From NCBI GenBank assembly GCA_020632135.1, contig JACKGC010000002.1:3325-67324 (forward strand): a stretch of DNA of 64,000 bases, written 5' to 3'. Under the pieces are notes generated by a model. It did not search any database. It was given only the letters and a program-made list of their open reading frames with translations, and was not told the origin of the DNA. Each line of letters opens with the position of its first letter. Position 1 is the stretch's first letter. The DNA comes from Candidatus Nomurabacteria bacterium. GTDB taxonomy: Bacteria > Patescibacteriota > Minisyncoccia > Phycocordibacterales > UBA918. Positions 5,523 through 46,517 of the stretch are shown here, piece after piece. A program made the position numbers and the translations under genes.

Positions 5523-5525
5523 GTT

Positions 5526-31910: not shown

Positions 31911-32774
31911 CTATTTTTGACAGCCTGGACAGTAGTGGGTCCCGCGTCCGGCGCAGCGGATCTTTTTAATGGTTCCACCACAGCGCGGGCACTTGGTGCC
32001 GTGTTGACCAAAGACTTTCAGGTAGTCGGTGAAGTTACCGTTTTCACCACCAGTGTCTTTGAAATGCTGGAACGTTGTGCCGCCAACGGCGATGGATTCT
32101 TTCATGACGTCTCCGGCGGCGGCGCACAGCGCCGCCGCCTCTTTCTTGGTGACCCGATCAGCCCGCCTGGTCGGACGCACGCCCGCACGCCAAAGTGCTT
32201 CATCCACATAAATATTTCCGAGCCCTGCAATGAATGACTGGTCCAAGAGGGCTGCTTTCACTGGAGTTTTTCTCTTCCGGAGCCGATCAGCGAACCACTC
32301 ACAATCAAAATTGTCGCTGATCGGCTCCGGCCCAAACCCAGCTTTTGCTTGTTCCATCTCAGAGCGATTCACTACCTTAGTGTATCCAAACAGCCGCATG
32401 TCATTGAAGTACAGCGTGGTGTGGTCGGTAAAGTGAAACGCAACGCGGGTGTGCTTCATTGGTAGGTCCATATCGGCGGCGGTCATAGAATGACCGCCGC
32501 CCGTCACCTCCGTATCAGCCCCAACATAGAAAAACTGCCCAGTCATCTTGAGGTGTGCTAAGAGAAACAGATCATCTTCACTCTCAAAACAAAAGATCAT
32601 CAGCTTCCCGACACGGTCTATATCAGCGATCGTCTTATCTCGTAATTTCTCTTCAATCACTTCGTCATGAGCGACTGTTTTATTATGAAAAACCTCGACG
32701 GAGTCAATAGTTTTACCAATTACTTTACGCAAGAGTTGCAGTCGTACAGTCTCTACTTCTGGGAGTTCTGGCAT
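31911..32774 (-). CDS. mutM: Formamidopyrimidine-DNA glycosylase
   Basis: MPELPEVETV N-terminus and the C-terminal zinc finger CPRCGGTIKKIRCAGRGTHYCPGCQ. Confidence 0.93.
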   Translation of the reverse strand: MPELPEVETVRLQLLRKVIGKTIDSVEVFHNKTVAHDEVIEEKLRDKTIADIDRVGKLMIFCFESEDDLFLLAHLKMTGQFFYVGADTEVTGGGHSMTAADMDLPMKHTRVAFHFTDHTTLYFNDMRLFGYTKVVNRSEMEQAKAGFGPEPISDNFDCEWFADRLRKRKTPVKAALLDQSFIAGLGNIYVDEALWRAGVRPTRRADRVTKKEAAALCAAAGDVMKESIAVGGTTFQHFKDTGGENGNFTDYLKVFGQHGTKCPRCGGTIKKIRCAGRGTHYCPGCQK

Positions 32775-32833
32775 GGCGGCATTGTACCCAAGTTAGGCTA
32801 TTTTTGCGACCGGGCAGGACATATAATTTGTAC

Positions 32834-33082
32834 ATGTCTCGCAAAGTCAACAAAAAGAAACGCTATGAGGTAATGTTCGAATTTCTCCTGTTTGGTATTG
32901 TAATTGGCGTGACCGAGGATCTGCTGGCAGTTCATCTGACGACAGGAGAGACTGTTACCTGGTCGATGATCGGTATCGTGATCTTGCTGGCCATTCCGTT
33001 TGCCATTATTGGTGAACTGATCGCTGACCACGTGGACTTTGTGAAGGTCTATGAGCGAATTACAGGCCGCCGCAAGCGATGA
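32834..33082 (+). CDS. Small membrane protein, hypothetical
   Basis: Two predicted TM helices (FEFLLFGIVIGV..., MIGIVILLAIPFAIIG). Start at ATG 32834. Confidence 0.45.
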   Translation: MSRKVNKKKRYEVMFEFLLFGIVIGVTEDLLAVHLTTGETVTWSMIGIVILLAIPFAIIGELIADHVDFVKVYERITGRRKR

Positions 33083-33165
33083 ACAGTTCTTAGTTGAAAT
33101 GTGGCTAAAAATCTGTAGAATAGCGGGTACTTAGCTTTTTGCTGAGTACTAGAGCTATATATTAT

Positions 33166-33237
33166 TCCGCGGTAGCTCAGCGGTAGAGCAGTCGGCTGTT
33201 AACCGATTGGTCGCAGGTTCGAATCCTGCCCGCGGAG
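33166..33237 (+). tRNA. tRNA-Asn (anticodon GTT)
   Basis: Hand-folded cloverleaf: acceptor TCCGCGG/CCGCGGA, D-arm GCTC..GAGC, anticodon stem GTCGG/CCGAT with loop CTGTTAA, T-arm GCAGG-TTCGAAT-CCTGC, discriminator G. Confidence 0.9.
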
Positions 33238-34812
33238 CAATACAGAACTCTGAGAGTACAAATCGCTATAAAACTGTTGCCTGTCAACGGTTTTTTGCGG
33301 TTCGAACCTATCGTGAATTTGCTTTACTTCAACAGAAGCCTTTTCAATGGCTTGAAGCATATCTGGCATGATAATAAAGAGTTTTTTGTCTACAAGCTTG
33401 AGGTTCGAACCTAGCATGAACAACATCTCTTTTCTGGTTCGTAATGATCCGTTTTTAAACCTCTTGTAGGCATCCTCGGCAAAAGTGAGATATTTTTCTG
33501 CATTGTTAAACCACTCTGTCGTACGTTCATTAGTGTTTCTAACTAGAGACTCTTGTCTAGACTTCTCCTGAAGTAGTTTTGCCTTTCTAGTTTTGAACTC
33601 TTCTGCACTAATTTCTTGGCTTGCCCTAAGATCAATGAGGTTGTCTATCTTTTGCAGGAGGTCTCCTAACTTTTGCTGTTGATTAAGGATAATCTTTTTT
33701 CTTGCTTTGACCTCTCGATTGTTATCCTCTTTAAGCCGGGTCATTGCCCAATTAAAAAACTCTTCAGGTATATCAATGCTTAACATTGATTTAGCTATCT
33801 GTTTTTCAAGCTTCTTCTCCTCAATTACCTTCTGTGAACAGTTGGGGTCTTTCCGCTTCGTACAGTGATAATAAACATAATGCCTCTCTATGCCGTTTTT
33901 CTGACGCTTTACTTTGTTTTCTGCTGTAATCATGGCACCACATTCGCCACAGATGATGGGACCTTTGTATGGGAAGTTGTAAGTTTTAGGACGAGTATTG
34001 TGTTTACCACCTAAAATATCCTGTACACTCTCGAACTCCTCTCTAGTGACCATTGGGTCGTGTTTGCCTTGGTACCAATTACCACTGCCTTTTGGGTATT
34101 CAAATACGCCATAATAGAAAGGATCAGATAGTATCCTGTAAATGTTACTCTTTGAGACAGCCTTTTCTTTGCGGTTTAACAAACCCCATTCTTCAGTGGC
34201 AATTTTGAGCACTTGAGGGGGTGTATAAGCACCTGTGAGCATTAAGTCCCATATCTTTCTGACTAAGTCGTATCTTTCAGGGTCTTTGACTATCTCTTTG
34301 TCTCCTTTGTTTTTGTAAGGATTGTGCATGTATCCAATAGTAGCCCATGCCGGGTACCACCCTCTTTCTGCTTTTGCTTTCAACCCTCGCTTTGTGTCGG
34401 TGCGTAAGTCTCGGATAAATTGGTTTGCTACACCAAACTCAACCTGCATCATCAGTACGTTATCGTCTGACTTGTAGTCTCTACCGTAGGTTTGTATGTG
34501 TTCGATGACATTCTCCTGTAACATCCAGCTGATATTTCCACCATCTATGGGATTGCGGGCAAGTCGGTTAAGTTTCCAGCAGAGTATACCAGTAGCTTCA
34601 CCCGAAGAAATGCGCATTAGCATGTCATTAAAAACAGGTCGTCCGGGAGCTTTGGCTGATCGTGACTCCTCAAACACTTCTACAACGTTTAACTTTTTAT
34701 CCTTGGCTAGCTCACGTAATTCACTAACCTGAGCATCAATAGACGCCATTTGCCGGTCTTCGTTTTCTGAAGACTTTCGAGCATAGATGAAGTATTTATC
34801 TGCGGCGTTCAT
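33199..34812 (-). CDS. Large serine recombinase (resolvase/invertase N-domain, recombinase domain, zinc ribbon, coiled coil)
   Basis: YARKSSENEDRQMASIDAQ (catalytic Ser region), CGECGAMITAE...YYHC zinc ribbon and a long helical C-terminus. The last 16 codons (SSVLLRGQDSNLRPIG*) are encoded on the complement of the tRNA-Asn. Confidence 0.9.
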   Translation of the reverse strand: MNAADKYFIYARKSSENEDRQMASIDAQVSELRELAKDKKLNVVEVFEESRSAKAPGRPVFNDMLMRISSGEATGILCWKLNRLARNPIDGGNISWMLQENVIEHIQTYGRDYKSDDNVLMMQVEFGVANQFIRDLRTDTKRGLKAKAERGWYPAWATIGYMHNPYKNKGDKEIVKDPERYDLVRKIWDLMLTGAYTPPQVLKIATEEWGLLNRKEKAVSKSNIYRILSDPFYYGVFEYPKGSGNWYQGKHDPMVTREEFESVQDILGGKHNTRPKTYNFPYKGPIICGECGAMITAENKVKRQKNGIERHYVYYHCTKRKDPNCSQKVIEEKKLEKQIAKSMLSIDIPEEFFNWAMTRLKEDNNREVKARKKIILNQQQKLGDLLQKIDNLIDLRASQEISAEEFKTRKAKLLQEKSRQESLVRNTNERTTEWFNNAEKYLTFAEDAYKRFKNGSLRTRKEMLFMLGSNLKLVDKKLFIIMPDMLQAIEKASVEVKQIHDRFEPQKTVDRQQFYSDLYSQSSVLLRGQDSNLRPIG

Positions 34813-35660
34813 AAAACTATTATATCCTCTTTAAAGGGAATGATTGTTGTTGCCCTCTTTCCTAATCTTTTTTGGACTAAGCTGTTGAAAAATGCCGGAG
34901 GGTTATTTTTATGTCTTCCGTCTAATTTCTCAAACTCATCAAAAGCGTCTTCTAGTACTCCTGTTCCGTGTTTCCGGTAAACATTCAGATAAAAACCAAT
35001 CTGCGTGTCACCTACCTGCATCGCTATCTTGAGACACTTTTCTTCTTCATAAGTCTCCGGCACAAAGTGATTTGTATGAAGCTTTACTTTTTGGGGTGAA
35101 GAGGGGAGCGATCGGTTATCTTTTTCTTTTTCAGTATTAGTATCGTTATTAGGACCTCTGATTATTTCTCCGACTTGTTTGAACTTTGAACCTTTGTTTA
35201 CAATGATATTTTTGGGATGAAACCTCTGACTATGGGCATGAAACTCTACTTTGACCTCTGGCTCGATCTCTTCCTTGTTAGGTGTTAAACCTCTGCCTAT
35301 TTCATCTGTGAAGAAGTGGTTCAAGGTTTTAATCTTCCCACCAGACAATAGCCAATCTCCCATATGGACCTCAAACGAACCTCTGCGTCCGGTTCGGCTT
35401 TGATACCATATGTACCTCTTACTCTTTAGTGATAGGAGTAGTTTATTGATGTAGCTCTTGTCGACGTGTGTGTTGAAGGTGTCGTCTGCTAAGCCGTCTA
35501 GAGTCACAACAGCTACGCCATATGGGTTGCCCGATGACCTAAGGACCAACAAGAGGTTCCTTTCGGGTTTTGTGATCTTGCCATTTCTATAATCACTCAT
35601 TATGTAGCGAGGGACCGTTACGTAGTCTAGTCTCTGTTTCTCCATACTCGTCATTATCAT
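34809..35660 (-). CDS. Hypothetical protein, possible winged-helix DNA-binding (replication or regulatory) protein
   Basis: 283 aa. 4-nt overlap with the recombinase start (coupled). N-terminal region KPERNLLLVLRSSGNPYGVAVVTLDGLADD. Confidence 0.55.
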   Translation of the reverse strand: MIMTSMEKQRLDYVTVPRYIMSDYRNGKITKPERNLLLVLRSSGNPYGVAVVTLDGLADDTFNTHVDKSYINKLLLSLKSKRYIWYQSRTGRRGSFEVHMGDWLLSGGKIKTLNHFFTDEIGRGLTPNKEEIEPEVKVEFHAHSQRFHPKNIIVNKGSKFKQVGEIIRGPNNDTNTEKEKDNRSLPSSPQKVKLHTNHFVPETYEEEKCLKIAMQVGDTQIGFYLNVYRKHGTGVLEDAFDEFEKLDGRHKNNPPAFFNSLVQKRLGKRATTIIPFKEDIIVL

Positions 35661-35796
35661 TTTCTAGTAAAACAATCTCCAATAATCGACATAACCTAAG
35701 ACCCTTTTTAAGAGCTTCATCACGACCTAACACAACCCCGTATCTTTTACGGTACATCTCTATGAACTCGTCGATGTGTTGGCCTGTAAGCTTCAT
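35593..35796 (-). CDS. Hypothetical small protein
   Basis: 67-aa ORF. Overlaps the downstream ORF start by ~68 nt in another frame. Confidence 0.35.
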   Translation of the reverse strand: MKLTGQHIDEFIEMYRKRYGVVLGRDEALKKGLRLCRLLEIVLLENDNDEYGETETRLRNGPSLHNE

Positions 35797-35835
35797 GTGT
35801 GGGTGGCGTGTGAGCGAGGTTTGGTGATTTAAAAA

Positions 35836-35893
35836 ACCGTATCTCGCTTAACAGGTCCTGAACGCCTTCGGTTCCTGCTAAGCGAGATACGGT
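35836..35893 (-). terminator. Rho-independent terminator (20-bp stem, 1 mismatch)
   Basis: ACCGTATCTCGCTTAACAGG / CCTGCTAAGCGAGATACGGT. T-run on the minus strand (complement of A 35831-35836). Confidence 0.7.
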
Positions 35894-35982
35894 CTCTTTA
35901 GATAAGGTGGCGTTCGTGGGACCAAAAAGTCACACTGTCGCCAGCTTACAAAAACGCCCTGTTTAAAAATGTTCCAAACAGT

Positions 35983-36711
35983 TTATAAGGTTCGGTATAT
36001 GTCCCCTTTATTCCATTTAAAGACATCGTCGGGGAGAAATTTTTTTATATCGCCCACTCTTCTGTTTATGTGATAAATGACTTGTCTCACAGCCTCCTTA
36101 TCTTTTTTGCTGAGCTCGTCTTCGTCAATGCCCGTCAGTTCAGTAGCAATATCTTCCCATCTTACAATTTCACCAACATCCGCTTCTAACATCATAGAGA
36201 GGGCGAGATACTCTCGTTTTGATCTTTCTATTGTAAAGACTGTTATCGACCCGGAGCTCAGGACGCCAGTTTCTTTATCAAACTCCAATGGTTCGGTCAG
36301 TGGTGGAGGAAGTAAATTTGCTAACTCAATTAGTTCGTCTCTTTGTCTAGTTAGTTCTTCTAATATTTCCGCACATCGCCGCTCGCCAACTTCTGTAGGG
36401 AAGCCTAACGCACAAGCTGCGAAAGAGAAGTCTGTAGATTTAGGGTCTAGAAACTTGTTCTTTGAATATGGCCCAAAATACTCTTTGTAATAACTGACAA
36501 ACTGATATACATGTACTTTCCATACAAGGTATTTATCATGCAAGTCACAGTAAAACCTTTCTGAGGGCTTTCTGTGGCGATATCGTATTTGATCAATGAT
36601 TGCGTTACTTTGCGCAATGAGCTCATTTACTTGATCATGTGGCTTTTCGTCTGAGTCTTGTTGATCTGAAACAGATGTTGTGTCTTTGGATGGTTCACTA
36701 TTATTACTCAT
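35983..36711 (-). CDS. Hypothetical protein with a C-terminal winged-helix-like region
   Basis: 242 aa. The C-terminal FTIERSKREYLALSMMLEADVGEIVRWEDIA...VRQVIYHINRRV resembles an OmpR-type wHTH. Confidence 0.5.
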   Translation of the reverse strand: MSNNSEPSKDTTSVSDQQDSDEKPHDQVNELIAQSNAIIDQIRYRHRKPSERFYCDLHDKYLVWKVHVYQFVSYYKEYFGPYSKNKFLDPKSTDFSFAACALGFPTEVGERRCAEILEELTRQRDELIELANLLPPPLTEPLEFDKETGVLSSGSITVFTIERSKREYLALSMMLEADVGEIVRWEDIATELTGIDEDELSKKDKEAVRQVIYHINRRVGDIKKFLPDDVFKWNKGDIYRTL

Positions 36712-37042
36712 ATTGGCGTTCAGGATGAGATTGTTACAGATTACACCTAATTATCTTGTTTTGCATGGTTTTGAGGAGTCTTCGGGTAAGGAGAAAGTTT
36801 GTGTGATAGTGTTGCTTCATTATGGGGAAAGTTAGTGCTAGACTACTTAGACAACTAAATATTTCAGTGGCCTAACCCGCAGTCGTGAGATAGCGGCATG
36901 GTTTAAAACCGATCAAAGATAGAGAACCCATCATATGGGAGCACTTTGATCGGTCCTGTCGGGAAACTGGCAGTGGGTAGCTGAGCTACCGCCCATGTGG
37001 TGGGCTTTGTGTATCTCAGCTTCATAAAAACCGATCAAAATT

Positions 37043-37978
37043 ATGGATACTAAAAAAAGTCCTCGTGATGAGGCGATAAAACATGAAGCTGAACATTATG
37101 ATGAGGTTCCGCTTTGGAAGTCATTCCGTGGTTACGCTGTACTAGGGATTGGTCTGTTGGGTGGGATAATGAGTGTACATCAGATATACCTGCAAGAGTA
37201 TGTATATGTTGTAATTTTTATCTCAGTACTCGCTATGCTTTTGTATTTTGTAGCTAAAGGACACTTGTGGTCTGTGTTTGTGCTGATGCTGCTCATTGTT
37301 TTCCACTCGATTAGTAACTGGATATACTTCGGAGTTATTGAACAAAAGTCAGGTGCGTGGATGGCGCTATTTTTTGGTTTTGTGATCCTGTCTTACTTTA
37401 TGATGCCGGTATTACGAGTCGAGCAGAAGAGAAGGTTTTTACAGAAGCAAGCAAAGGAAGGTCGGGTGATTGACACTTCTGTACTGAATAATAATCATGA
37501 AGATAAGGAGTCTGTGAAGACAGGAAGTGTTGACTCTGGTCATTTAAACTTGAGCAACGTTGTTATTGCTGTTCTCCTAGGGGCTCTCTTGATAGTTTTT
37601 GTCCTTATTTGGCAGAACGATGGAGGTGAAAGGGTGGGGTCTGGGCAAAGTGGTGGCACGACTCTAGTTACCGCACAAGAGTTGGTCGATATAGAGCTTA
37701 GTCATTACAGACTTCCTTACAAAATTGACAATGGTTTTTATGTTTTTGATGTACATGCGGTAAGTCGTTCAGAAATAGCGTATTCGATCCAAGCCACGAA
37801 TTATGCTGTGAGTGATATTGACTGGACCGAGTTCGGACCCGTTCTAAAAGGGGTGATGACGTCAGATTATTGCAAAACAGATGCTAAAGACAGCGACATT
37901 ATCTTTACTTACAAGTACTTCGATAAGGTAAAGGAGCATATTGGTAGTTACTCCATCACCCCGAGGGATTGTTTTTAA
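37043..37978 (+). CDS. Hypothetical membrane protein (4-5 TM plus a C-terminal soluble domain)
   Basis: 311-aa ORF, first gene of a tightly packed four-gene plus-strand block. Confidence 0.6.
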   Translation: MDTKKSPRDEAIKHEAEHYDEVPLWKSFRGYAVLGIGLLGGIMSVHQIYLQEYVYVVIFISVLAMLLYFVAKGHLWSVFVLMLLIVFHSISNWIYFGVIEQKSGAWMALFFGFVILSYFMMPVLRVEQKRRFLQKQAKEGRVIDTSVLNNNHEDKESVKTGSVDSGHLNLSNVVIAVLLGALLIVFVLIWQNDGGERVGSGQSGGTTLVTAQELVDIELSHYRLPYKIDNGFYVFDVHAVSRSEIAYSIQATNYAVSDIDWTEFGPVLKGVMTSDYCKTDAKDSDIIFTYKYFDKVKEHIGSYSITPRDCF

Positions 37979-37987
37979 TGGTTATTT

Positions 37988-38551
37988 ATGAGCAAAGAAC
38001 ATACTTTTGCATCTTTAGGTAACCAAAAAACACCCTTGTTTTACAAGGAAGTTGTTTTCCCAGAAGGGGAAAGGCATTTCGGTATAGATGTTTCTAAAAA
38101 ATACTTTTTAGACCCATGGAGTGATAGTAAACACTCTCCTGCACAATATTATTATCAACGTGTATTTGACCTAGTGTATGAAGATGAGCCTTGGTGTTAT
38201 GAAGGAACTGTCTACAAAATACGCATAGCTACTGACTCTGGTGTTCCAGAGGTCAGCGAGTGGGGGACTGTAGAAAGCTATATCAAAACCCATCATGGAC
38301 TATGGAAGGAAGAGGCTGAGAGGCGAAAGCAGATTGTTTGGGCAATGGGAGTACCTTTAGTTGTTTCCGTAATTGGATTAAATGAGACATGGTACATACC
38401 TATTATGTTATTAGCAGGGGCTATTGGTTTTTTTGCGGTGGGGGAATGGCGGCAAGGTCGTAGTAAAAGGAAGATCAAAAAACTTTTCAGGCTAACTGAA
38501 AAAACAAGAAATGGAGGAGATAAGGCAAGTTTTGCTGATAAAACTATATAA
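37988..38551 (+). CDS. Hypothetical protein with C-terminal TM helices
   Basis: 187-aa ORF, 9-nt spacing to the previous gene. Confidence 0.55.
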   Translation: MSKEHTFASLGNQKTPLFYKEVVFPEGERHFGIDVSKKYFLDPWSDSKHSPAQYYYQRVFDLVYEDEPWCYEGTVYKIRIATDSGVPEVSEWGTVESYIKTHHGLWKEEAERRKQIVWAMGVPLVVSVIGLNETWYIPIMLLAGAIGFFAVGEWRQGRSKRKIKKLFRLTEKTRNGGDKASFADKTI

Positions 38552-38563
38552 CCAGATGGATAT

Positions 38564-39052
38564 ATGAATGATATGTTTTGTCTTAGTCAGAATGAAAGAA
38601 AGTGTTCGGAAGGTGCTGAAGCTAGGCCGGTATTGCTATCGGACTGGTTTAACAAATTGGATGCATTTCAGGCAGAGGGTTATGAGTGGGCACAGAACGT
38701 GTTGGGCATCTGTGGACCGCTTACAGGCCACAGGAGCGACTTGGTGCCGTGTGCACTTACGTGGATGGTAGATGATTACCTTAGTCATGTTCTGGGCTAT
38801 GGAGGGCAAGATTGGGAGAGTCTGCTGGATGAGTATTATGTAAACCAGGATGAGATATGGGACCGGGTGTGGAAGATTAGAGGTGAGATTGCAAAAAGGC
38901 TTCTGAGCAAGGTCGATGGTGAGGAAGTTTGTCGTTCATTAGAGAAACTTACAGAACATGAAGTTGAAGACGAGCCGGGTGTATTTCGTAACCAACTAAG
39001 CTTCACTCAACAGTTGGAGTTACGAAGCTTTGTGTCGAATGGGTTGATGTAA
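38564..39052 (+). CDS. Hypothetical protein
   Basis: 162-aa ORF in the same block. Confidence 0.5.
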   Translation: MNDMFCLSQNERKCSEGAEARPVLLSDWFNKLDAFQAEGYEWAQNVLGICGPLTGHRSDLVPCALTWMVDDYLSHVLGYGGQDWESLLDEYYVNQDEIWDRVWKIRGEIAKRLLSKVDGEEVCRSLEKLTEHEVEDEPGVFRNQLSFTQQLELRSFVSNGLM

Positions 39053-39063
39053 TAGATTAGGGT

Positions 39064-40134
39064 ATGAGTCAGATGCTTTGTTGTAATGAGTGTGGCAGGG
39101 AAGTAAGGGATGTTTTTCCGTTTCCTGGCTTTATTACTGAGGATGGTGAGGTCGAAGTGTATGACGACTGGCGAACGGCGGGTTTCTTTGACGACGAAGA
39201 CAATGTAAGTGCTGTGTCCAGAAGTGTTAGGTGGTGCATGAACTGCAAAAAAGAGGTTTATTCCTATGTTAGTCATGTTAATTGGGACTTTTGGTGGCAG
39301 GTGGTCCAAAGCTTAAGGAAGCTAGAGTATTTGACTGAAAGGCAGTATGCAAAGCTTGTAAAAAAAGAGCTTAAAGCAAATGGATATGAAGATGGTGTGC
39401 CGCTGGTTGAGGGTGCTGACTGTAAACACGAAAACATTTCTGAACAAGACATATTTAAATACCTACAGGAAAAGAAGCTCATAGGTCCAAAAGAAAAACA
39501 TCTGTTTTTCTTTGAAAGACATAAGGTCCTCATACCAACTGATCTGAAGCAAAAAGATCTTGTGCCGTACGCAAAAGTATCTCTAAATGGTTCTTGTGAA
39601 GAGTGTGGTAAACATAATCTCGCAGAAGTGGGTGGTTCGTGTCCAATCTGCGAAAAAGGTATTTTGGAGCATGTTGGGTCTTGTGAGCCTACTGAGTCAA
39701 GAGGGAAAAAAGAGTTTGTGCTCGCTGGAGAGAGTTTAGATAAAGAGCTGTATAGCGACTTATTTTCTCATTACATTCAAGGTCAGTTGTCGCTTGAGAG
39801 AGACGTGAGAAAGACGGCAAGAGACCTCTTTGATGGTGACATACGAAAAGCGGTAGCCGAGCATGAGGACTTCTTTGCAGACGCTTTTAGGCGTTTTAGA
39901 GAAGGTTTTACCATTAAAGGAGAAGTTTATAGTAAGGATACATACCCCTGCCTTTTCATTGCTTACTGTGACTTCAAGATTGAAACGGTGGCACTGGTGG
40001 TTGATATTGCAGAGAAACAGTTCGGAGGAGATATTAAGCTAGCTGTGGAGGCAGAAGATAGAAGACTGCGTGATCAAGGCTTGTGTTCTAGTCGGATTAG
40101 TAGAGTAACCAGCAAAAGGTGTGGTATTTGTTGA
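39064..40134 (+). CDS. Hypothetical protein with multiple CxxC zinc-ribbon motifs
   Basis: CCNECGREV...CMNCKKEV and CEECGKHNLAEVGGSCPICEKG. Confidence 0.55.
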   Translation: MSQMLCCNECGREVRDVFPFPGFITEDGEVEVYDDWRTAGFFDDEDNVSAVSRSVRWCMNCKKEVYSYVSHVNWDFWWQVVQSLRKLEYLTERQYAKLVKKELKANGYEDGVPLVEGADCKHENISEQDIFKYLQEKKLIGPKEKHLFFFERHKVLIPTDLKQKDLVPYAKVSLNGSCEECGKHNLAEVGGSCPICEKGILEHVGSCEPTESRGKKEFVLAGESLDKELYSDLFSHYIQGQLSLERDVRKTARDLFDGDIRKAVAEHEDFFADAFRRFREGFTIKGEVYSKDTYPCLFIAYCDFKIETVALVVDIAEKQFGGDIKLAVEAEDRRLRDQGLCSSRISRVTSKRCGIC

Positions 40135-40680
40135 GGTTTTGTCGAGTTTGTCCGCTAGATCGTAAATCTCCTTGATCAAGGCTCTGTTTTTAGTCTTATT
40201 ATCTTGTTTTTCGGCCCCGTATCCGTGGTTTGCTTTTAGTAAGAAGACCGCAAAGGTTGTATTACAACGTCCACTGAGGCTCATATTTATCAAGTACTCG
40301 TGTTGCATACTTTTAATCAGCTCTATGCCGTGTTCAAATTGAGGGTGACGCTTTGTCCAATTTCTGAATGTGTTCTTGTGAATGACCACTCCGTATTTTT
40401 TCCAGAGGAAGTTTAGATAACCGGCGATGCTTGGCATCAAAGGTTGTTTAGAAGGAGTTTGTCTTTTAATAGGCTGTCTTTCTGCTGTATTAAGTTCGCA
40501 TTGTATTAAGTACTCCCAAATATCATTGTCAGCGTAGCGTTTTTTGTATAGAGAACTCCGACCACCTCTTTTGCCTGGCGTAAGGGTTCTGTTTTTACAC
40601 TCATACGAACAAAAGTGCTTTTGCCGAGGTTTGAGTACTTTGTCGCATCGTGAGTGTTCACACGTGCGGTTTTTGATCAT
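40039..40680 (-). CDS. Terminase small subunit-like HTH protein with an N-terminal Cys cluster
   Basis: PSIAGYLNFL...NTFRNWTKRHPQFEHGIELIKSMQHEYLINMSL...TFAVFLLKANHGYG matches the recalled terS pattern (PS..GLA.YLG...T...W....F...I......E..L.......IF.LKN..GW.D). Confidence 0.45.
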   Translation of the reverse strand: MIKNRTCEHSRCDKVLKPRQKHFCSYECKNRTLTPGKRGGRSSLYKKRYADNDIWEYLIQCELNTAERQPIKRQTPSKQPLMPSIAGYLNFLWKKYGVVIHKNTFRNWTKRHPQFEHGIELIKSMQHEYLINMSLSGRCNTTFAVFLLKANHGYGAEKQDNKTKNRALIKEIYDLADKLDKTSTNTTPFAGYSTNPTRTQALITQSSIFCLHS

Positions 40681-40928
40681 GTTTACACTAAACTTATCAC
40701 AGAAAGCCCCTTACGTGCACAAAAACTCAAAAGCACTCTAGAAATGCAGTGATTTTCATGCGGTATGCAGATTTTTGGTCGGTAACATGTTCTTAACTCG
40801 TAAGTATCTTAAACAGCACAGGTTCGAACGTCCTCTATCCAGCGGAGCCAATAAAATCTTAAGTCGCACCCACTGGTGCGGCTTTTGATTTTACGGCTCC
40901 GCGGGAGTGACAGTCTGGGAGACTGTCA

Positions 40929-41032
40929 CATCAGGATTCGAAGACCTTGCCAGCTATTTTGGAGTCTGGAAGACGAACAAAATAGCGACAAGGTGTACTG
41001 AAGCTGTAAGCTTCGAATCCTGCCCGCGGAGC
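40929..41032. repeat. 104-bp repeat, copy 1, ending in att core copy 2
   Basis: Identical to 45461-45564 except for one position (GTCTGGAAG versus GTCTGAAAG). Confidence 0.9.
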
Positions 41033-41139
41033 TTTCATAAGAATACCCTTGTTTATAAGGGTATTTTTGTGCATGGTCGATCACAGAGAAACCGATTATA
41101 GCTTGTTGTATTATCTATTAAAAACACCACCCAGGTATA

Positions 41140-41733
41140 CTAGGTGGCGTTTAGCTGCATAATAATCTCGTCGTAGAAGCAGCCCTTTCTTCTATGGACT
41201 TTTGGGTACCTGTACACTTCATTGAAACCGCAATGTCTGTAGCATGCTATAGCGGCGGTGTTGTGCTCGAGAACCCGCAATACAATCCCTCTCAACTCAA
41301 GATGGGTAAAACCAAATGTACAGAGACTTGAAACAATCTTTCTTCCATACTTATTACCACGAGAATGATTGTCACCCAGGAAAATTTCAAGCTCACAATA
41401 CCCTTGCACTGCATGAACTTTGTTTAAAGCGCAGAAGCCGATTGGTACGCCTTGTTTTTTTACAACAAAGGTCCAATCCGTATCCACTTTTTCCCGTAGA
41501 TCATGTAAACGTCTAGCAGTTTTTTCAATCGTCTCGTGTGAACCACTAAGAAACTCTATAATCTCAGGACTGTTTACCCAGCGATTATATAGAGGTACGT
41601 ACTTGTTGATCTGACTGATCTGCAAGGAGTTAAGTCTGCATAGGTCGATTTCTCCCACATGCAGTACAGTGCCTACCTTTGCCATTTTCATTGTAACCTC
41701 CTCGGAACTTAGTCTTCGTATTATCTGTGACAT
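41140..41733 (-). CDS. GNAT family N-acetyltransferase (RimJ/RimL-like)
   Basis: GFCALNKV...LEIFLGDNHSRGNKYGRKIVSSLCTFGF...RVLEHNTAAIACYRHCGFNEV (acetyl-CoA-binding motif A region). Confidence 0.85.
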   Translation of the reverse strand: MSQIIRRLSSEEVTMKMAKVGTVLHVGEIDLCRLNSLQISQINKYVPLYNRWVNSPEIIEFLSGSHETIEKTARRLHDLREKVDTDWTFVVKKQGVPIGFCALNKVHAVQGYCELEIFLGDNHSRGNKYGRKIVSSLCTFGFTHLELRGIVLRVLEHNTAAIACYRHCGFNEVYRYPKVHRRKGCFYDEIIMQLNAT

Positions 41734-41861
41734 TTATACTACAAAAATTTATAATGACAATACGGGACAAATTCAATCGTTAGAACTATTGAAATAAAAT
41801 TTTTTGTGGTATCGTCGTGTTATCAGTCAATCCTGGCTGTGTTCTTTAAAAGGAGACAGAT

Positions 41862-41993
41862 ATGTCAATTCTCCGCCGTATCTTCGGAAGGTCGAAGAAA
41901 CACGTCGAAAAGTTCAGTACCCGGGCCGGTGGTCCGAGTATGAACTTGGTGGCCACATCCAGCCAATGCGCAGGCATGTGCAAGTGTAACTAA
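41862..41993 (+). CDS. Candidate RiPP precursor peptide (43 aa, Cys-rich C-terminus)
   Basis: Not in the ORF track (<60 aa). AAAGGAG RBS at 41849-41855. Hand translation: MSILRRIFGRSKKHVEKFSTRAGGPSMNLVATSSQCAGMCKCN*. Lies 78 nt upstream of the radical SAM gene. Confidence 0.5.
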   Translation: MSILRRIFGRSKKHVEKFSTRAGGPSMNLVATSSQCAGMCKCN

Positions 41994-42017
41994 GGGCATC
42001 GATTGGTGCCTAAACAT

Positions 42018-42047
42018 AAATTGCCTGGGTAGTCACTCAGGCAATTT
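42018..42047 (+). promoter_or_regulatory. Hairpin between the precursor ORF and the maturase gene (possible partial terminator)
   Basis: AAATTGCCTG (42018-42027) / CAGGCAATTT (42038-42047), followed by CTCT. Confidence 0.4.
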
Positions 42048-42071
42048 CTCTACGTAATTGAGGAGGGGTAA

Positions 42072-43451
42072 ATGCAAGTTAATCAACTTACTAGTGTTAG
42101 CGCACCAATATCGGTTAATCTAGAAGTAACAGATAAGTGCAACTTGAGCTGTAGTTTTTGTTTCAATGCTGCACCTAGCTATGAAGCCATGATGCAGTCT
42201 CAGGAGAAACAGGATCGTGCTGAAAAAGCGCAAAACGAACTATTAATTTCAGTTCGAAAAAAGCGCATTCTGAAAACACTCGACAGACTTCACGAGACAG
42301 GGGTTTTGGAGATACGTCTTTTTGGAGGCGAGTTTACTATCTTTAAGAGCTGGAGAGAAATACTCGAATATGCATCAACAAAAGGATTCTTAATTTCTTT
42401 TGTTTCCAATGGATATCTTATCGATGGAGATGCGGCTGACGCGTTAGCCAGAAATGGGGTCGCTGAATGCACGATATCTATTCACGGTCCAAGAGATGTT
42501 CATGATGCAGTCGTCAAGCGTATTGGCAGCTTTGATAGAGCGATGGCTGCGATTAAGTACTTGAGGGAATCAGGTGTGGTGCCAACTGTGGCATATACAC
42601 CAAACCGTGAAAATATCGACACGCTGGAGGCTTTTATTCGAGAGATGTGTGAAGAATATGATGTTATGTCATTTTCGATTAGCAGACTATTCTCTGATGA
42701 TCGCTACAGCAATCTGACGCTCGATGATTATTATCGAATTCTTGAAGTAATCGATCGTTGTCATCGTGATCTGGGTGTGGAGATAATGCTTGCGGATTCG
42801 TTTCCAAGGTGTCAGGTGCCAATCAAATATTGGCGCTATCTTGGATACTGTTCACAAGGTGTAACCTTTGCACAAGTCGACTTCAACGGTAATATCAAAA
42901 ACTGTTCAGCCACTTCAAAAATTCTTGGTAACGTGCTCGAGGAAGATGTTACAAAGTTGTGGCCTGAAAAGCTTTCTGGAATGTGGAGACTCGATCATCT
43001 GCCAAAATCCTGCAAAATTTGCCCGATTTTTTGTGGAGGTGGGTGTACTGTCTCTCGCGGAGTTGAGAATCAATTTGCTCCTGATGAGTTCATTCCATGG
43101 CCAAGTGACGAAAGCTGGCTGCAGGCAATAGCAAAGACTGTCTACAATCGGGTGAGGAAAATCGGTCATCGAATTTTCTATGCTCAACACTACGCTAAAC
43201 CAGAATCCGTAAAAGAACTGAGCAACACTCCTGTGGTGGTCGAGTATAACTCGCGACCTGAAGGAGAAGGTCATGTCGTCATGTTTAAAAATTTTGGCGT
43301 CAGACAGCTCACTGATCAAGCGTACGAGGTGCTCAGATACATCGATGGCAAAAGAAGTATCAGTGAAATAACTGCAATAGTTCAAAAAAAGTACAATGGT
43401 ACTTCTGAAGCTGAAGTTGTTGAAATACTTAAAAGCCTGCCATTAAGGTAA
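42072..43451 (+). CDS. Radical SAM enzyme with a SPASM auxiliary-cluster domain and a C-terminal PqqD-like (RRE-type) domain
   Basis: GAGGAGGGG RBS. CNLSCSFC (CX3CX2C, aa 23-30). GGEFTIF. SPASM-like CSQGVTFAQVDFNGNIKNC...CKICPIFCGGGC. C-terminal LTDQAYEVLRYIDGKRSISEITAIVQKKYNGTSEAEVVEILKSL. Confidence 0.88.
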   Translation: MQVNQLTSVSAPISVNLEVTDKCNLSCSFCFNAAPSYEAMMQSQEKQDRAEKAQNELLISVRKKRILKTLDRLHETGVLEIRLFGGEFTIFKSWREILEYASTKGFLISFVSNGYLIDGDAADALARNGVAECTISIHGPRDVHDAVVKRIGSFDRAMAAIKYLRESGVVPTVAYTPNRENIDTLEAFIREMCEEYDVMSFSISRLFSDDRYSNLTLDDYYRILEVIDRCHRDLGVEIMLADSFPRCQVPIKYWRYLGYCSQGVTFAQVDFNGNIKNCSATSKILGNVLEEDVTKLWPEKLSGMWRLDHLPKSCKICPIFCGGGCTVSRGVENQFAPDEFIPWPSDESWLQAIAKTVYNRVRKIGHRIFYAQHYAKPESVKELSNTPVVVEYNSRPEGEGHVVMFKNFGVRQLTDQAYEVLRYIDGKRSISEITAIVQKKYNGTSEAEVVEILKSLPLR

Positions 43452-43454
43452 GGT

Positions 43455-43483
43455 AAAGAGAGGGGTGTACCCTCTCTTTTTTT
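43455..43483 (+). terminator. Rho-independent terminator
   Basis: AGAGAGGG-gtgta-CCCTCTCT followed by TTTTTT. Confidence 0.75.
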
Positions 43484-43499
43484 ATACTATACTTTGTTT

Positions 43500-44024
43500 A
43501 TGAAACATAAGCCCGATATTACATTCATCAACGACGTCAAAGACGTCTTAAGAAGTAAAGAAATTGTTGAAGAATTTGTACCTTTTCTTGAACGTAACGG
43601 TTATGAATTTTATTACCCATTTACAGAAAGCACTGATGCAGAGGAAGTGGCCAGGCAAATTGAGCTCGACGTAGACAAATTCGAGCTTAATGTGGCTAGT
43701 GAAAAGCTGCAGACCTTATGGAATTCCTTAAATAACGACTCAGTAGAGGGAGATTCTCTTTATGCTAAAGATTATATCTGTGTTGTTACCATGTATGGAC
43801 CGCGTGGTTTTTTTTACACCCCAAACACTATTTACGTGAATGTCACTTTTGATTCAGAACGGGACTGGGTTCAGACGATGTTGCATGAAATGCTTCACCT
43901 GGCACATTTTGAAGAGACTAAAGAGCTGGCTCATGCTGAAAGGGAAGGTTTCATAGATAAAAAATTTATAGAGCTCTGGGGTGATACTTTTCCTGAGTAT
44001 TCCAAGCAAAAAATATCAAAGTAG
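43500..44024 (+). CDS. Hypothetical HExxH-motif protein (putative zinc metallopeptidase)
   Basis: WVQTMLHEMLHLAHFEE contains HEMLH. Start at ATG 43500. Confidence 0.55.
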   Translation: MKHKPDITFINDVKDVLRSKEIVEEFVPFLERNGYEFYYPFTESTDAEEVARQIELDVDKFELNVASEKLQTLWNSLNNDSVEGDSLYAKDYICVVTMYGPRGFFYTPNTIYVNVTFDSERDWVQTMLHEMLHLAHFEETKELAHAEREGFIDKKFIELWGDTFPEYSKQKISK

Positions 44025-44228
44025 TCACAATATCAAAGTTCCGCCCCTTAGGGTGTTATGAAGGGAGTGACAGGGAATTGGGAATAAAAAACTTTACATC
44101 TTCAAACACTTTATTCCAATCAACTGTTCGAAACGCATCCAACTGGCGGAGCAAAGAAAAGTATCCCTAGAAACAGGGATATTTTTTGTTCAGAGTTGAT
44201 ACCCTGAGAAGACAGTTCGAAAAAGGTA

Positions 44229-44277
44229 CCTGACACCATTTACCATTTACTCACCATTTACCCTGACACCATTTACC
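44229..44277. repeat. Iteron-like cluster: four CCATTTAC units, including a 16-nt direct repeat CCTGACACCATTTACC (two copies)
   Basis: CCTGACACCATTTACC at 44229-44244 and 44262-44277. CCATTTAC also at 44243-44250 and 44254-44261. Confidence 0.8.
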
Positions 44278-44410
44278 ATGAGCTAGTCTATGTGCCATCT
44301 GAAGACCTGGTTACGTGAGTTCGAACGTTATCCCATAGGTGAGCAAACGAGTCTAATTATATTTATCAACGAAAGTTGGTTCGGATCCTGTAAACAGGTA
44401 TACTTTGTGT

Positions 44411-44740
44411 ATGCATTTTTCAAGATTATTTAAAGTAAAAGAGGGAAAATTGGATGACATAAAAAGTTGGTTTAAAGTTTTGAGTGGTGACCGAAAAGAA
44501 GAAGCAATTGCGACTTTCGAATACGAAAATGTATCAAGAGAGGTTTTTGTTTTATTTAGTGGTCATAATGGAAATAGTTACGTGGTTGGGTTAAACGAAA
44601 CGACTGGTGAGCATAGAGGTGGTGATCCGGATGTCAAAATAAATCAAGAACATACTAAAATCCTAAAAGAATGTTTAGAGCCAGTTTCAGACAATGGTAG
44701 TGTTTTGCTAGATTTACAGATTCACAAGGATGAAGCCTAA
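44411..44740 (+). CDS. Hypothetical small protein (DUF6176-like by recalled pattern)
   Basis: FSRLFKVKEGKLDDIKSWFKVL...INQEHTKILKECLEP. Confidence 0.45.
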   Translation: MHFSRLFKVKEGKLDDIKSWFKVLSGDRKEEAIATFEYENVSREVFVLFSGHNGNSYVVGLNETTGEHRGGDPDVKINQEHTKILKECLEPVSDNGSVLLDLQIHKDEA

Positions 44741-44848
44741 CTGTGGTGTGTACGTTTTGTTTGGATTGAGTTTAATATTAACTTGTGATACTTTTCAGAA
44801 AGCTAGATGACGATCTAGCTTTTGTTCTGTATCAACTGGAGAACTCCT

Positions 44849-45382
44849 ATGAAAAGTTTGTGTCTTACTGCAATTCACGCAGGCATTATGCCCGTGCATC
44901 AAGAACGACTTGCCTATATCGATTCGTGCGACTTCAGTCGCTACTTCGACAAGGCAGTTGAACTCGATCTGATAAGTGGTAACGTCGATCGTGAAGCAAT
45001 AATCTTCGCTCTCAAGCAGTACTATGCCATCGCCATGCTCGACCCGGCAAACGGGCATGCGGTGTCTGATGTCGTTGATCCTCTCTGGCATGCACACATG
45101 CTGTTTAGTGAGGAGTATGCTCAGTTTTGCAGCATAGTGGTTGGCGAGTATATGCATCACACGCCTCTGCTTAAGAACGATGATGCGATGCGCATGAAGG
45201 TGCGAGCGCTGTACGACTACACCCTGCTTCGCTTGCGCGAGTGTTTCAGTCACGTCGACGAACGTATGTGGCCGGCGCTTCTAGACGAGCGCCTGATCTG
45301 TATGCATAAGGGTAATCAGTCGATCTACATTGACATGCAGGCAGCTCGTCTTTTTCCTGCGAATCTGGCTTTAGCCACCTAA
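44849..45382 (+). CDS. DUF1399/glycine-rich-domain-protein-like hypothetical
   Basis: VDPLWHAHMLFSEEYAQFCSIVVGEYMHHTP motif. GGAGA RBS before ATG 44849. Confidence 0.55.
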   Translation: MKSLCLTAIHAGIMPVHQERLAYIDSCDFSRYFDKAVELDLISGNVDREAIIFALKQYYAIAMLDPANGHAVSDVVDPLWHAHMLFSEEYAQFCSIVVGEYMHHTPLLKNDDAMRMKVRALYDYTLLRLRECFSHVDERMWPALLDERLICMHKGNQSIYIDMQAARLFPANLALAT

Positions 45383-45460
45383 TTAGGTAGTTTGTTGTAA
45401 CTCTGTCCCTGTACTATGTACTGGGACTTTTATTTTTTATAAAAAGTTCGAACACCATCC

Positions 45461-45564
45461 CATCAGGATTCGAAGACCTTGCCAGCTATTTTGGAGTCTG
45501 AAAGACGAACAAAATAGCGACAAGGTGTACTGAAGCTGTAAGCTTCGAATCCTGCCCGCGGAGC
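45461..45564. repeat. 104-bp repeat, copy 2, ending in att core copy 3
   Basis: See copy 1. Confidence 0.9.
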
Positions 45565-45614
45565 AGATCAAGTACGCTGAGAAATGGGGTGTGCTTTTTG
45601 GTATACTCAAACTA

Positions 45615-45878
45615 ATGAAACAATACAAACAGTGTCAGAGCTGTGGCTTCCCACTCAAGCAGGATAAAAAAGGTGGTGGCACCAATGCAGATGGTACTGT
45701 GAGCGAGAAGTACTGCTCTATGTGTTATGAGAATGGCCAATTCCTCAGTCCGCCAGAAGTTGATACGGCTGAAAAATTTCAGCAGTACTGTATGAAAGAG
45801 ATGAAAAAAGATGGCTGGAATGGAATTCTGGCCTGGTTCTTAACGCGGGGCATTCCGCGACTTGAGCGTTGGAAATGA
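45615..45878 (+). CDS. Zinc-ribbon domain protein
   Basis: CQSCGFPL...GTNADGTVSEKYCSMCYENGQF pattern. Confidence 0.6.
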   Translation: MKQYKQCQSCGFPLKQDKKGGGTNADGTVSEKYCSMCYENGQFLSPPEVDTAEKFQQYCMKEMKKDGWNGILAWFLTRGIPRLERWK

Positions 45879-45957
45879 GCAACAACCCCACCTATAAACT
45901 ATATGACGTTGTCTCGAAAGCGACACAAGATGCCTGAATGAATGCCTCACAGAAATT

Positions 45958-46299
45958 ATGAATGAATGGAATGAGTACTTACAAAAACTAGAGACAGAAC
46001 CAAGGTTGGCTGTGGAGTTTGTGTTATCTACCGCCATCAGATTGGCTCCCAATGCAATCAAGGCAATGCCATACGGGGTTCCGGGGCTAAAACGTAACGG
46101 CAAACCACTCATCGCTGTGGCGGCTCATAAAAATCACTATGGTGTGTATCCATTTAGTCCTAATGTTATTGAGGGTCTCAAACCTCTTTTGGGAGATTTG
46201 GAAACCGCAAAAGGAACAATTCGCTTTCCATATGACAAGAAACCATCAAAACGCCTCATTAGTGAATTGTTGAAGTTGCGAACCAGCGAAATTTTGTAG
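45958..46299 (+). CDS. DUF1801 (YdhG-like) domain protein
   Basis: PYGVPGLKRNGKPLIAVAAHKNHYGVYPFS...AKGTIRFPYDKKPS pattern. Confidence 0.6.
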   Translation: MNEWNEYLQKLETEPRLAVEFVLSTAIRLAPNAIKAMPYGVPGLKRNGKPLIAVAAHKNHYGVYPFSPNVIEGLKPLLGDLETAKGTIRFPYDKKPSKRLISELLKLRTSEIL

Positions 46300-46517
46300 T
46301 TCATCTTCCACATCCTTTCAATCAATCGTTATGGACGTGCTTAGGCCGCGGTGAAAGGTACCCCTTTCTTTGCACACCGTTTCCTAGCGTTTATCAGTAA
46401 GGAACTAACTGTGGCAAAGTAAGGACGTAGAATTGCGAAAAATAACGGACGAGCATCAGTACGCTACAGAAAGAATGTCTGTAGAATGACGTGCAGTTTC
46501 AGGTCAGTTTGGATGTG

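Follow-up and report, generated by a model that had tools for sequence, protein, structure and literature searches.

The described systems closest to the locus reported here are phage satellites, such as the phage-inducible chromosomal islands (PICIs) and the Staphylococcus aureus pathogenicity islands (SaPIs), and the immunity RNAs of phages P4 and P1. To our knowledge, almost nothing is known about mobile elements of the Candidate Phyla Radiation (CPR; Patescibacteria), despite the large share of bacterial diversity that these organisms represent. In P4 (seqA-seqB-seqC) and P1 (a1/b1-c4-a2/b2), direct repeats flank a complementary sequence within a structured RNA. Among satellites, the phage-inducible chromosomal island-like element (PLE) of Vibrio cholerae uses a large serine recombinase (PMC6002521). 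The LOOT RNA motif (RF03000) was reported by Weinberg et al. 2017 (PMC5737381) and is termed 'metagenomic-based' in PMC7779021; in the literature searched, the 2017 supplement aside, LOOT appears only as a metagenome-derived RNA with no function or genomic context, and CPR elements of the kind described below have no earlier description. Here we analyze a 64,000-nt window of a Candidatus Nomurabacteria genome (contig JACKGC010000002.1), of which positions 35983-40680 form the right-hand two-thirds of an integrative element, E1, seated in a tRNA-Asn gene of this Parcubacteria (CPR) genome. Exact sequence matches in NCBI tie the window to a metagenome-assembled genome under the name Candidatus Nomurabacteria (locus tags H6778_03610-03630, 78.6-kb contig), and the flanking UDG has a further record under Candidatus Kaiserbacteria. 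E1 is one of a widespread set of small CPR elements that combine a large serine recombinase, packaging genes and a variable operon headed by LOOT. The whole account that we lean towards, with considerable reserve, is that E1 is a phage satellite in which LOOT acts as a switch in cis and two operon genes, p311 and p356, form an accessory pair.

The extent of E1 can be read from repeats of its target. The GC content is 41-43% across the segment from 33.2 to 45.6 kb and ~52% in the flanks, and the segment opens in the tRNA-Asn gene, whose 25-nt 3' end (attL) recurs as repeat family D2 at 41009-41033 (92%; attR1) and 45541-45565 (96%). The 107-nt segment that closes E1 and ends in attR1 is likewise found again at 45458-45564 (98%). 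The tRNA 3'-end repeats thus delimit two tandem segments, E1 (33215-41033, 7.8 kb) and a second one, E2 (41034-45565), and the 3' end of the tRNA-Asn gene is supplied by E1. From left to right, E1 carries a recombinase gene (-), p283, p67 and p242 (all -), LOOT (+), the block p311-p187-p162-p356 (+) and a gene for a protein resembling the small terminase subunit (TerS; -). We regard it as nearly certain that E1 is a bounded integrative element and a member of the LOOT/serine-recombinase family. The original prediction, an earlier reading of this DNA, had placed six open reading frames (ORFs) in 35983-40680, all of which were confirmed (p242, the four block genes and the TerS-like gene; Table 1); the LOOT RNA heading the block and the attachment repeats bounding E1 were absent from it.

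The recombinase contains the domains PF00239, PF07508 and PF13408, all above Pfam cutoffs, and matches the integrase family phrog_95 (8e-65). Its last ~13 codons overlap tRNA-Asn in antisense. Of the 65 homologues with a visible 3' flank, 23 similarly have their stop codon within a tRNA gene that converges on them, and these 23 involve 12 tRNA identities (examples besides the window are L189, L053 and L094, where L numbers denote loci and P numbers, below, proteins). The C terminus of the recombinase is therefore encoded by the antisense strand of the tRNA gene, and attP must fall inside the 3' end of the recombinase gene. The recombinase would both integrate and excise E1 at the tRNA.

A degenerate LOOT pattern retrieved 106 stretches of GTDB species genomes, nearly all of them from CPR bacteria (Saccharibacteria, Parcubacteria, Gottesman-, Uhr-, Doudna-, Komeilibacteria and others), and at least 120 metagenome contigs. 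On re-testing with Rfam, 11 of 11 pattern-selected loci passed the gathering score of 46.4, as did L240 and L241, which were reached through a protein look-up and not through the pattern; scores ranged from 70 to 103 bits. In all, 232 LOOT loci (208 distinct cores) were oriented on LOOT, and their ORFs were called and clustered. The large serine recombinase forms the largest cluster and is present in 109 of the 232 loci, a count that becomes 49/83 for loci with at least 2 kb on both sides and 11/14 for those with at least 4 kb. A large terminase subunit (TerL; phrog_38, 251 bits) with ATPase and nuclease parts occurs in 38 loci. Other recurrent clusters are small TerS-like helix-turn-helix (HTH) proteins (c3, c66 and c78), a fusion of ParB_N with an N6/N4 methylase (ParB-MTase), a primase-helicase (c67) and AAA_25 (c11), and none of the recurrent clusters tested is structural.

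Two layouts are seen. One runs tRNA, recombinase (-), LOOT (+), cargo (+), TerL (-), TerS (-), ParB-MTase (-), and the other ParB-MTase, TerS, TerL, recombinase, LOOT and cargo, all on the plus strand, followed by a tRNA (-). In the elements whose recombinases are most closely related to that of the window (L189, L053, L160, L166/L126, L104/L155 and L094), TerL gives way to a TerS-like gene on its own and/or to a primase or AAA_25. Three elements are bounded, namely E1, L189 (5.9 kb, with an 18-nt tRNA-His repeat) and L239 (~7 kb), and structural genes are absent from all three. As the related elements show, packaging genes without capsid genes are a recurrent, conserved architecture and not a one-off product of decay. 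The first gene 3' of LOOT is co-directional with it in 164 of 180 loci, at a median gap of ~60 nt, but the cargo itself is highly variable: transmembrane (TM) proteins with an OB-fold or SNase, NucS/PDDEXK nucleases, RadC, type I restriction-modification (with AAA_13 in L240), an OLD-like ATPase, reverse transcriptase and SocA/Gp49-like pairs. L240 also contains a 210-nt direct repeat (98%) at 5383-5592 and 6027-6236, in the recombinase gene and the gene next to it.

The 213-aa protein at the right of E1 had been called small-terminase-like, with an N-terminal Cys cluster, and it survives profile searches on both Pfam and PHROGs. It matches PF16677 (GP3_package) at 41.7 bits (cutoff 29.4; E 1.4e-10), with residues 41-159 aligned to profile positions 2-103 of 105, and the PHROG terminase families phrog_3064 (9.8e-12) and phrog_309. 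The Cys cluster is indeed present (C7, C12, C24 and C28) and is kept in full-length homologues. The closest relatives in cultured phages, ~30% identical, are Klebsiella siphophage genes whose annotation reads terminase small subunit or just terminase; in OY979427.1, the one phage checked, the gene lies ~2 kb upstream of the genes for TerL and the portal. Homologues are few (5 among 5.8 billion proteins). The first distant one, P0005 (48% identity), comes from a Tara Oceans metagenome-assembled genome, where it adjoins a homologue of p311 (38%) that has a LOOT RNA (67 bits) directly on its 5' side. In E1 the TerS-like gene converges on p356 with a 96-nt overlap (40039-40134). Relatives have kept this overlap together with the C-terminal tails of both proteins; across the window, L242 (1864-1932) and L243 (1731-1796) the overlap spans 66-96 nt.

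E1 combines an integrase and att repeats with a TerS-like gene in the absence of virion genes, and in its bounded relatives, too, the TerS-like gene goes with a lack of structural matches. Searches of Pfam, PHROGs and NCBIfam with the nine E1 proteins gave no match to capsid, portal, tail or large-terminase families, in agreement with the original prediction that nothing in the element looks structural. If E1 is a phage satellite, then on infection by a helper phage its TerS of the GP3 type would direct the helper's packaging machinery to E1 DNA. For the LOOT/serine-recombinase family as a whole, we judge the chances of its being a family of phage satellites to be evenly balanced.

Several observations weigh against E1 as a satellite. 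No helper phage came to light, nor did a cognate TerL, a pac site, or E1 in circular or encapsidated form. The TerS-like gene has no packaging module around it, since TerL is absent from E1 and the window by Pfam, PHROGs and homologue search, and the window likewise holds no TerL of the type seen in related elements. No replication gene was recognized in E1; relatives carry a primase-helicase or AAA_25. The TerS-like family was absent from a scan of IMG/VR viral contigs, and a first, looser LOOT pattern gave only one true match in the 2.9 million contigs of that collection. A search of PDB sequences with the TerS profile returned nothing meaningful, and an AlphaFold2 model built on a 6-sequence alignment has a mean predicted local distance difference test score (pLDDT) of 36.4, which offers no evidence on the fold. 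The earlier idea of a PICI-like satellite therefore stands as far as the bounded element, the integrase, the TerS and the recurrent capsid-less architecture are concerned, but not for helper dependence, as no helper was found.

Two other origins for E1 have to be weighed against the same evidence. It could be an integrative genomic island that never enters phage particles, its TerS-like HTH serving as a regulator or a recombination directionality factor and its transfer, if any, proceeding by other routes such as natural transformation. The missing helper and TerL would fit such an island, as would its island-like cargo (restriction-modification, toxin-antitoxin and nuclease genes). The HTH of small terminases also resembles that of transposases and regulators (cluster c3 matches Pfam HTH_Tnp_1_2), and in several relatives (L053, L166) the TerS-like gene adjoins the recombinase. 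However, the match extends over the full GP3_package profile and not just its HTH, the phage homologues are bona fide terS genes, and the complete TerL of related elements is hard to explain without DNA packaging. We consider an island of this kind unlikely.

A decaying prophage remnant, with TerS as the last trace of its packaging module among junk and genes captured from the host, strikes us as very improbable. E1 does lack TerL, structural and recognized replication genes, and the integrase-less E2 beside it shows that decay takes place at this site. Against this, all E1 ORFs are intact, the three bounded elements all fall between 5.9 and 7.8 kb, and the p356/TerS overlap has been kept along with both C-terminal tails. 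Moreover, the compact architecture of recombinase, LOOT, operon and packaging genes recurs in dozens of CPR species whose proteins are only 25-57% identical, which points to purifying selection on the whole arrangement.

Of all the features of the locus, LOOT is the best conserved and the most informative. In the window it scores 68.0 bits (E 2.6e-11), covers model positions 1-121 of 121, and ends 53 nt from the start codon of p311. Its nucleotide identity between the window and P0005 loci is 82-88%, whereas the element proteins are only 25-57% identical. The leader region has a fold z-score of -3.46, and across the family the sense strand folds better than the antisense strand in 196 of 207 sequences (mean -51.6 vs -43.8 kcal/mol). 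This advantage favors an RNA over a double-stranded DNA site and makes a palindromic double-stranded DNA site unlikely. A role in the recombination machinery was also considered and rejected: the LOOT of the window is 2 kb from the recombinase gene, and one viral contig, L244, has the same core without LOOT. L244 (IMGVR_UViG_3300032177_003192, 7.4 kb) was the one contig returned by a scan of IMG/VR with the family TerL; it carries Xis, ParB-MTase, TerS, TerL and a recombinase abutting tRNA-Asp, with neither LOOT nor cargo between recombinase and tRNA.

Conserved elements are also found on either side of LOOT. Most loci have an ACAAyT box 8-20 nt 5' of the Rfam model (36851-36856 in the window), and many have a TATAAT-like hexamer a few nt 5' of the box; the RNA probably begins ahead of the first position of the model. 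On the 3' side, a short GC hairpin followed by a T-tract is present in 97 of 199 loci, compared with 7% of control windows, and the alignment shows it to be conserved. Some loci, such as L045, L016 and L031, also have the T-tract enclosed by a CUGGCGG...CCGCCAG hairpin, 25-50 nt beyond the 3' end of the model; it is weakly enriched (85 loci vs 57 in shuffles).

The LOOT structure offers a way in which the RNA may act on the gene behind it. One strand of helix P3, termed Box1, consists of the 10-12 nt after a conserved AAAA(N)C in LOOT; the opposite strand, the anti-box, is complementary both to Box1 and to a copy of it, Box2, that lies just before the p311 start. Box2 follows LOOT at a distance of 22-57 nt, and an ATG comes 0-10 nt after it. 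Downstream, Box1 recurs exactly over at least 8 nt in 32 of 193 loci; the figure falls to 1.9 (maximum 5) once boxes are exchanged among loci by permutation, and to none in upstream controls. With at least 9 nt and up to one mismatch, the count is 39 of 193 against 8.8 permuted; these represent 35 distinct sequences, a few of them likely chance, and 30 of the 39 have an ATG within ~10 nt. In L240 an exact repeat of 17 nt occupies the Box1/Box2 positions. In the window the 3' strand of P3 is able to pair with either Box1 or the identical Box2.

The pairing itself shows signs of selection. When the anti-box:Box2 helix is tallied over 19 distinct sequences, 93.7% of it is paired, and 8 of its 10 pairs show changes on both sides. 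In L026, L035 and L108 the anti-box complements Box2 perfectly but not Box1, which indicates that selection acts on the pairing and that duplication alone is not the explanation. A target-site duplication was rejected on related grounds, as Box1 is one strand of a covarying helix and the anti-box of these three loci is the better fit to Box2.

The alternative pairing of the anti-box with a Box2 at the start codon suggests that LOOT is a cis-acting switch on translation of p311. Folded LOOT would keep the p311 start region free, and the anti-box:Box2 pairing would occlude it. That LOOT gates p311 translation in this way is, in our estimate, somewhat better than an even bet. Counting against it, Box2 is present in only ~16-20% of LOOT loci, so that in the remaining ~80% LOOT needs another or an additional read-out and Box2 is not the universal one. 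The rows used for the pairing count were chosen for Box1/Box2 similarity, which makes the count partly circular. No sigma-70 consensus promoter was detected 5' of LOOT in the window, and the core of L244 implies that LOOT is part of an optional cargo cassette, dispensable for mobility.

The main rival to a switch in cis is a trans-acting immunity RNA of the P4 CI/P1 c4 type. Processing or the terminator-like hairpin would then set LOOT free, and its anti-box would silence the operon through Box2 on read-through or newly entering transcripts. As in P4 and P1, Box1 and Box2 flank the anti-box in a stable RNA and the target is the ribosome-binding region; about half of the loci have a feature resembling a terminator after LOOT, and Rfam classes LOOT as an sRNA. 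However, the anti-box is buried in an 11-bp helix of folded LOOT, the downstream genes are accessory and neither replicative nor lytic, LOOT matches neither C4 nor any Rfam family but its own, and most loci lack Box2. On balance we think that a trans-acting RNA is doubtful. A broader proposal, which we put forward tentatively as a possibility well short of even, is that LOOT is a riboswitch-like leader that senses a conserved ligand or host factor and gates the accessory and defense cargo of a pan-CPR family of capsid-less serine-recombinase elements with terminase genes, Box1, anti-box and Box2 then forming its translational expression platform.

The gross features previously given for the four proteins of the block (membrane, TM-tailed, soluble and multi-zinc-ribbon) were as claimed, and none has a significant match in Pfam, PHROGs, NCBIfam or PADLOC. 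In p311 the hydrophobic segments lie at residues ~48-127 and 165-195; the N-terminal domain (residues ~1-150) is conserved, whereas the C-terminal part is not. Homologues directly 3' of LOOT are found in L002, L127/L140 and L240/L241. The 356-aa protein p356 has five CxxC-type pairs, and its homologues are P0017 (82%), P0018 (69%), L240/L241 (41%, full length) and, for the N-terminal domain alone, L127/L140. Protein homologue searches as such found two homologues for p356 and one for p311. An AlphaFold2 model of p356 from a 3-sequence alignment has a mean pLDDT of 38.5 and, to the detriment of our account, provides no fold evidence. The remaining two proteins are narrower in distribution. An exhaustive HMMER search of 1.84 billion representatives with p187, which has one or two hydrophobic segments near 124-152, returned p187 itself and one marginal match (E 4.7e-4), and matches to p162 come only from L242 and L243.

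The linkage of these genes follows the same division. In L240/L241, p311 (57%) and p356 (41%) lie 3' of LOOT at the same UDG-Fpg-tRNA site as in the window, with a GP3-like TerS upstream of LOOT and type I restriction-modification after the pair. LOOT, p311 and p356 are also linked in L127/L140, where only the N-terminal domains are shared. L242 and L243 have p356 with p162 and a convergent TerS on short contigs that start inside or after p311, leaving LOOT beyond view; p187 is missing from L242, in which p311 is directly followed by the p162 homologue. L002, with protein identities of 38-48%, contains TerS, LOOT and p311 only, without p356. Since p311 and p356 recur, p162 is confined to near relatives and p187 is an orphan, the block consists of a conserved pair with two additions and not of a four-gene system. 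The earlier proposal of a four-gene block is accordingly borne out for p311 and p356, which recur together, but not for p162 and p187, and there is no conserved four-gene unit. By comparison of the relatives, p311 and p356 appear to be the conserved accessory pair of this sub-lineage, and p162 and p187 are probably recent additions.

One alternative is that the four plus-strand genes form a single anti-phage or superinfection-exclusion system. Defense-type genes do fill the position after LOOT elsewhere (type I restriction-modification with AAA_13, NucS/PDDEXK, SNase, OLD-like, reverse transcriptase and SocA/Gp49), and p311, with its conserved membrane anchor and variable outer part, would suit such a system. 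However, a PADLOC screen of the nine E1 proteins gave no defense match at E <= 1, bar a 13-bit, chance-level one for p283, and the genes travel apart: p187 is an orphan, p162 has near relatives only, p311 and p356 alone recur, and L002 has p311 without p356. A single system is not likely. Most likely, p311 (membrane, variable outer part) and p356 (zinc ribbons) together provide a surface or exclusion function.

Three further minus-strand genes of E1 lie between the recombinase gene and LOOT. The relatives of p283 identified by tblastn are L016 (26% identity) and L240 (50%), and from its position alone it is a candidate for a replication module. The p67 ORF overlaps the p283 start by 68 nt, and the true start of p283 may be further downstream; homologues of p67 are located 5' of LOOT on the opposite strand. 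For p242 the relatives are weak (L099, E 4e-4; a C-terminal motif in common with L189), and the C-terminal region may be a winged helix. The notion that p242 is a conserved gene divergent from LOOT is unsupported, as it has weak relatives only.

To the right of the convergent p356/TerS pair, a strong hairpin (40861-40884) stands in the non-coding end of E1, 5' of the 107-nt repeat. E2 (41034-45565) is low in GC, lacks an integrase and is flanked by copies of the tRNA-Asn 3' end. It encodes a GNAT acetyltransferase, a radical SAM enzyme with a PqqD-like C terminus and DUF6176, which gives it the look of a cassette for ribosomally synthesized and post-translationally modified peptides. The E1 recombinase might mobilize E2 in trans. 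Just beyond the islands, the minus strand encodes a repetitive protein of 2045 aa (46518-52655; GC 0.48) that has a hydrophobic segment at its N terminus.

Table 1. Positions of E1 and LOOT features within the 64,000-nt window
Feature	Position	Strand	Evidence
tRNA-Asn (GTT), integration target	33166..33238	+	ARAGORN; Rfam tRNA, 73.6 bits
Large serine recombinase, 537 aa	33199..34812	-	Pfam Resolvase, Recombinase, Zn_ribbon_recom
attL, 25-nt copy of tRNA-Asn 3' end	33215..33239		Repeat family D2
p283	34809..35660	-	tblastn relatives; no family match
p67, cluster c16 of LOOT elements	35593..35796	-	Homologues in L160, L053, L048 and others
p242, 242 aa, divergent from LOOT, lineage-specific	35983..36711	-	No family match (Pfam, PHROGs, NCBIfam)
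LOOT RNA (RF03000), leader of plus-strand operon	36869..36990	+	cmscan, between p242 and p311
Box1 (CCGATCAAAG), 5' strand of LOOT helix P3	36909..36918	+	Sequence; cmscan structure line
Anti-box (CTTTGATCGG), 3' strand of P3	36944..36953	+	Complementary to Box1 and Box2
GC hairpin GCCCA-TGTGG-TGGGC then TTTGTGT, terminator-like, weak	36991..37012	+	Terminator scan
Box2 (CCGATCAAAA), copy of Box1	37031..37040	+	2 nt before p311 ATG 37043
p311, 311 aa, polytopic membrane protein	37043..37978	+	Hydropathy; homologues directly 3' of LOOT
p187, 187 aa, C-terminal TM segment, orphan	37988..38551	+	HMMER search
p162, 162 aa, acidic, soluble	38564..39052	+	tblastn matches only L242 (77%), L243 (70%)
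p356, 356 aa, two Cys4 zinc-ribbon-like clusters and helical C-terminal part	39064..40134	+	Cys pairs
TerS-like protein (GP3_package), 213 aa, N-terminal Cys4 cluster	40039..40680	-	Pfam, PHROGs
Hairpin and T-tract, strong	40861..40884	+	Terminator scan: 10 pairs, 6 GC
Right end of E1, 107-nt segment ending in attR1 (41009-41033)	40926..41033		Repeat families D1, D2

As far as we have checked, the link between LOOT and CPR serine-recombinase/terminase elements is new, as is the Box1/Box2 repeat. LOOT together with a serine recombinase, with or without a terminase, would give a recognizable handle on gene flow, exchange of defense genes and phage parasitism in CPR bacteria, and if the satellite reading is true, CPR/Patescibacteria would gain their first described satellite family. 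LOOT itself, until now an orphan, gains a genomic context, in that it stands at the front of the variable operon that these elements carry, and the alternative pairing of the P3 3' strand at a start codon is a directly testable mechanism. The recombinases constitute a large and diverse natural set of tRNA-targeting serine integrases, with possible interest as tools.

Compared with the C4 antisense RNA of P4 CI and P1 c4, LOOT is similarly a structured leader RNA complementary to direct repeats, one of which is at the downstream start. LOOT is larger, however (~121 nt, several helices), its complementary strand lies inside a helix, it heads accessory genes, and Box2 occurs in a minority of loci; an Rfam E-value scan of 32500-46500 for families including C4 gave only tRNA and LOOT. 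The TerS-like protein differs from small terminases of the P22 gp3 type (PF16677) in its extra N-terminal Cys4 cluster, in having no adjacent TerL and in having no PDB relative by sequence, but it shares with them a full-length profile match above threshold.

PLEs, which measure ~18 kb and are not known to be integrated in tRNA genes in the way of E1, resemble E1 in the class of their recombinase. PICIs use a tyrosine integrase, whereas the E1 family uses a large serine recombinase. E1 further departs from PICIs in residing in a tRNA gene with the recombinase stop codon inside it, in the full TerL and ParB-methylase carried by many of its relatives, in its CPR host, in having LOOT at the head of its cargo, and in having no known helper or induction circuit. 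Nevertheless, E1 has in common with satellites of the PICI/SaPI type that it is a small integrated element with an integrase and a small terminase of its own, and the likeness extends to accessory or defense cargo, the lack of virion structural genes and, in some cases, a replication gene of the primase type.

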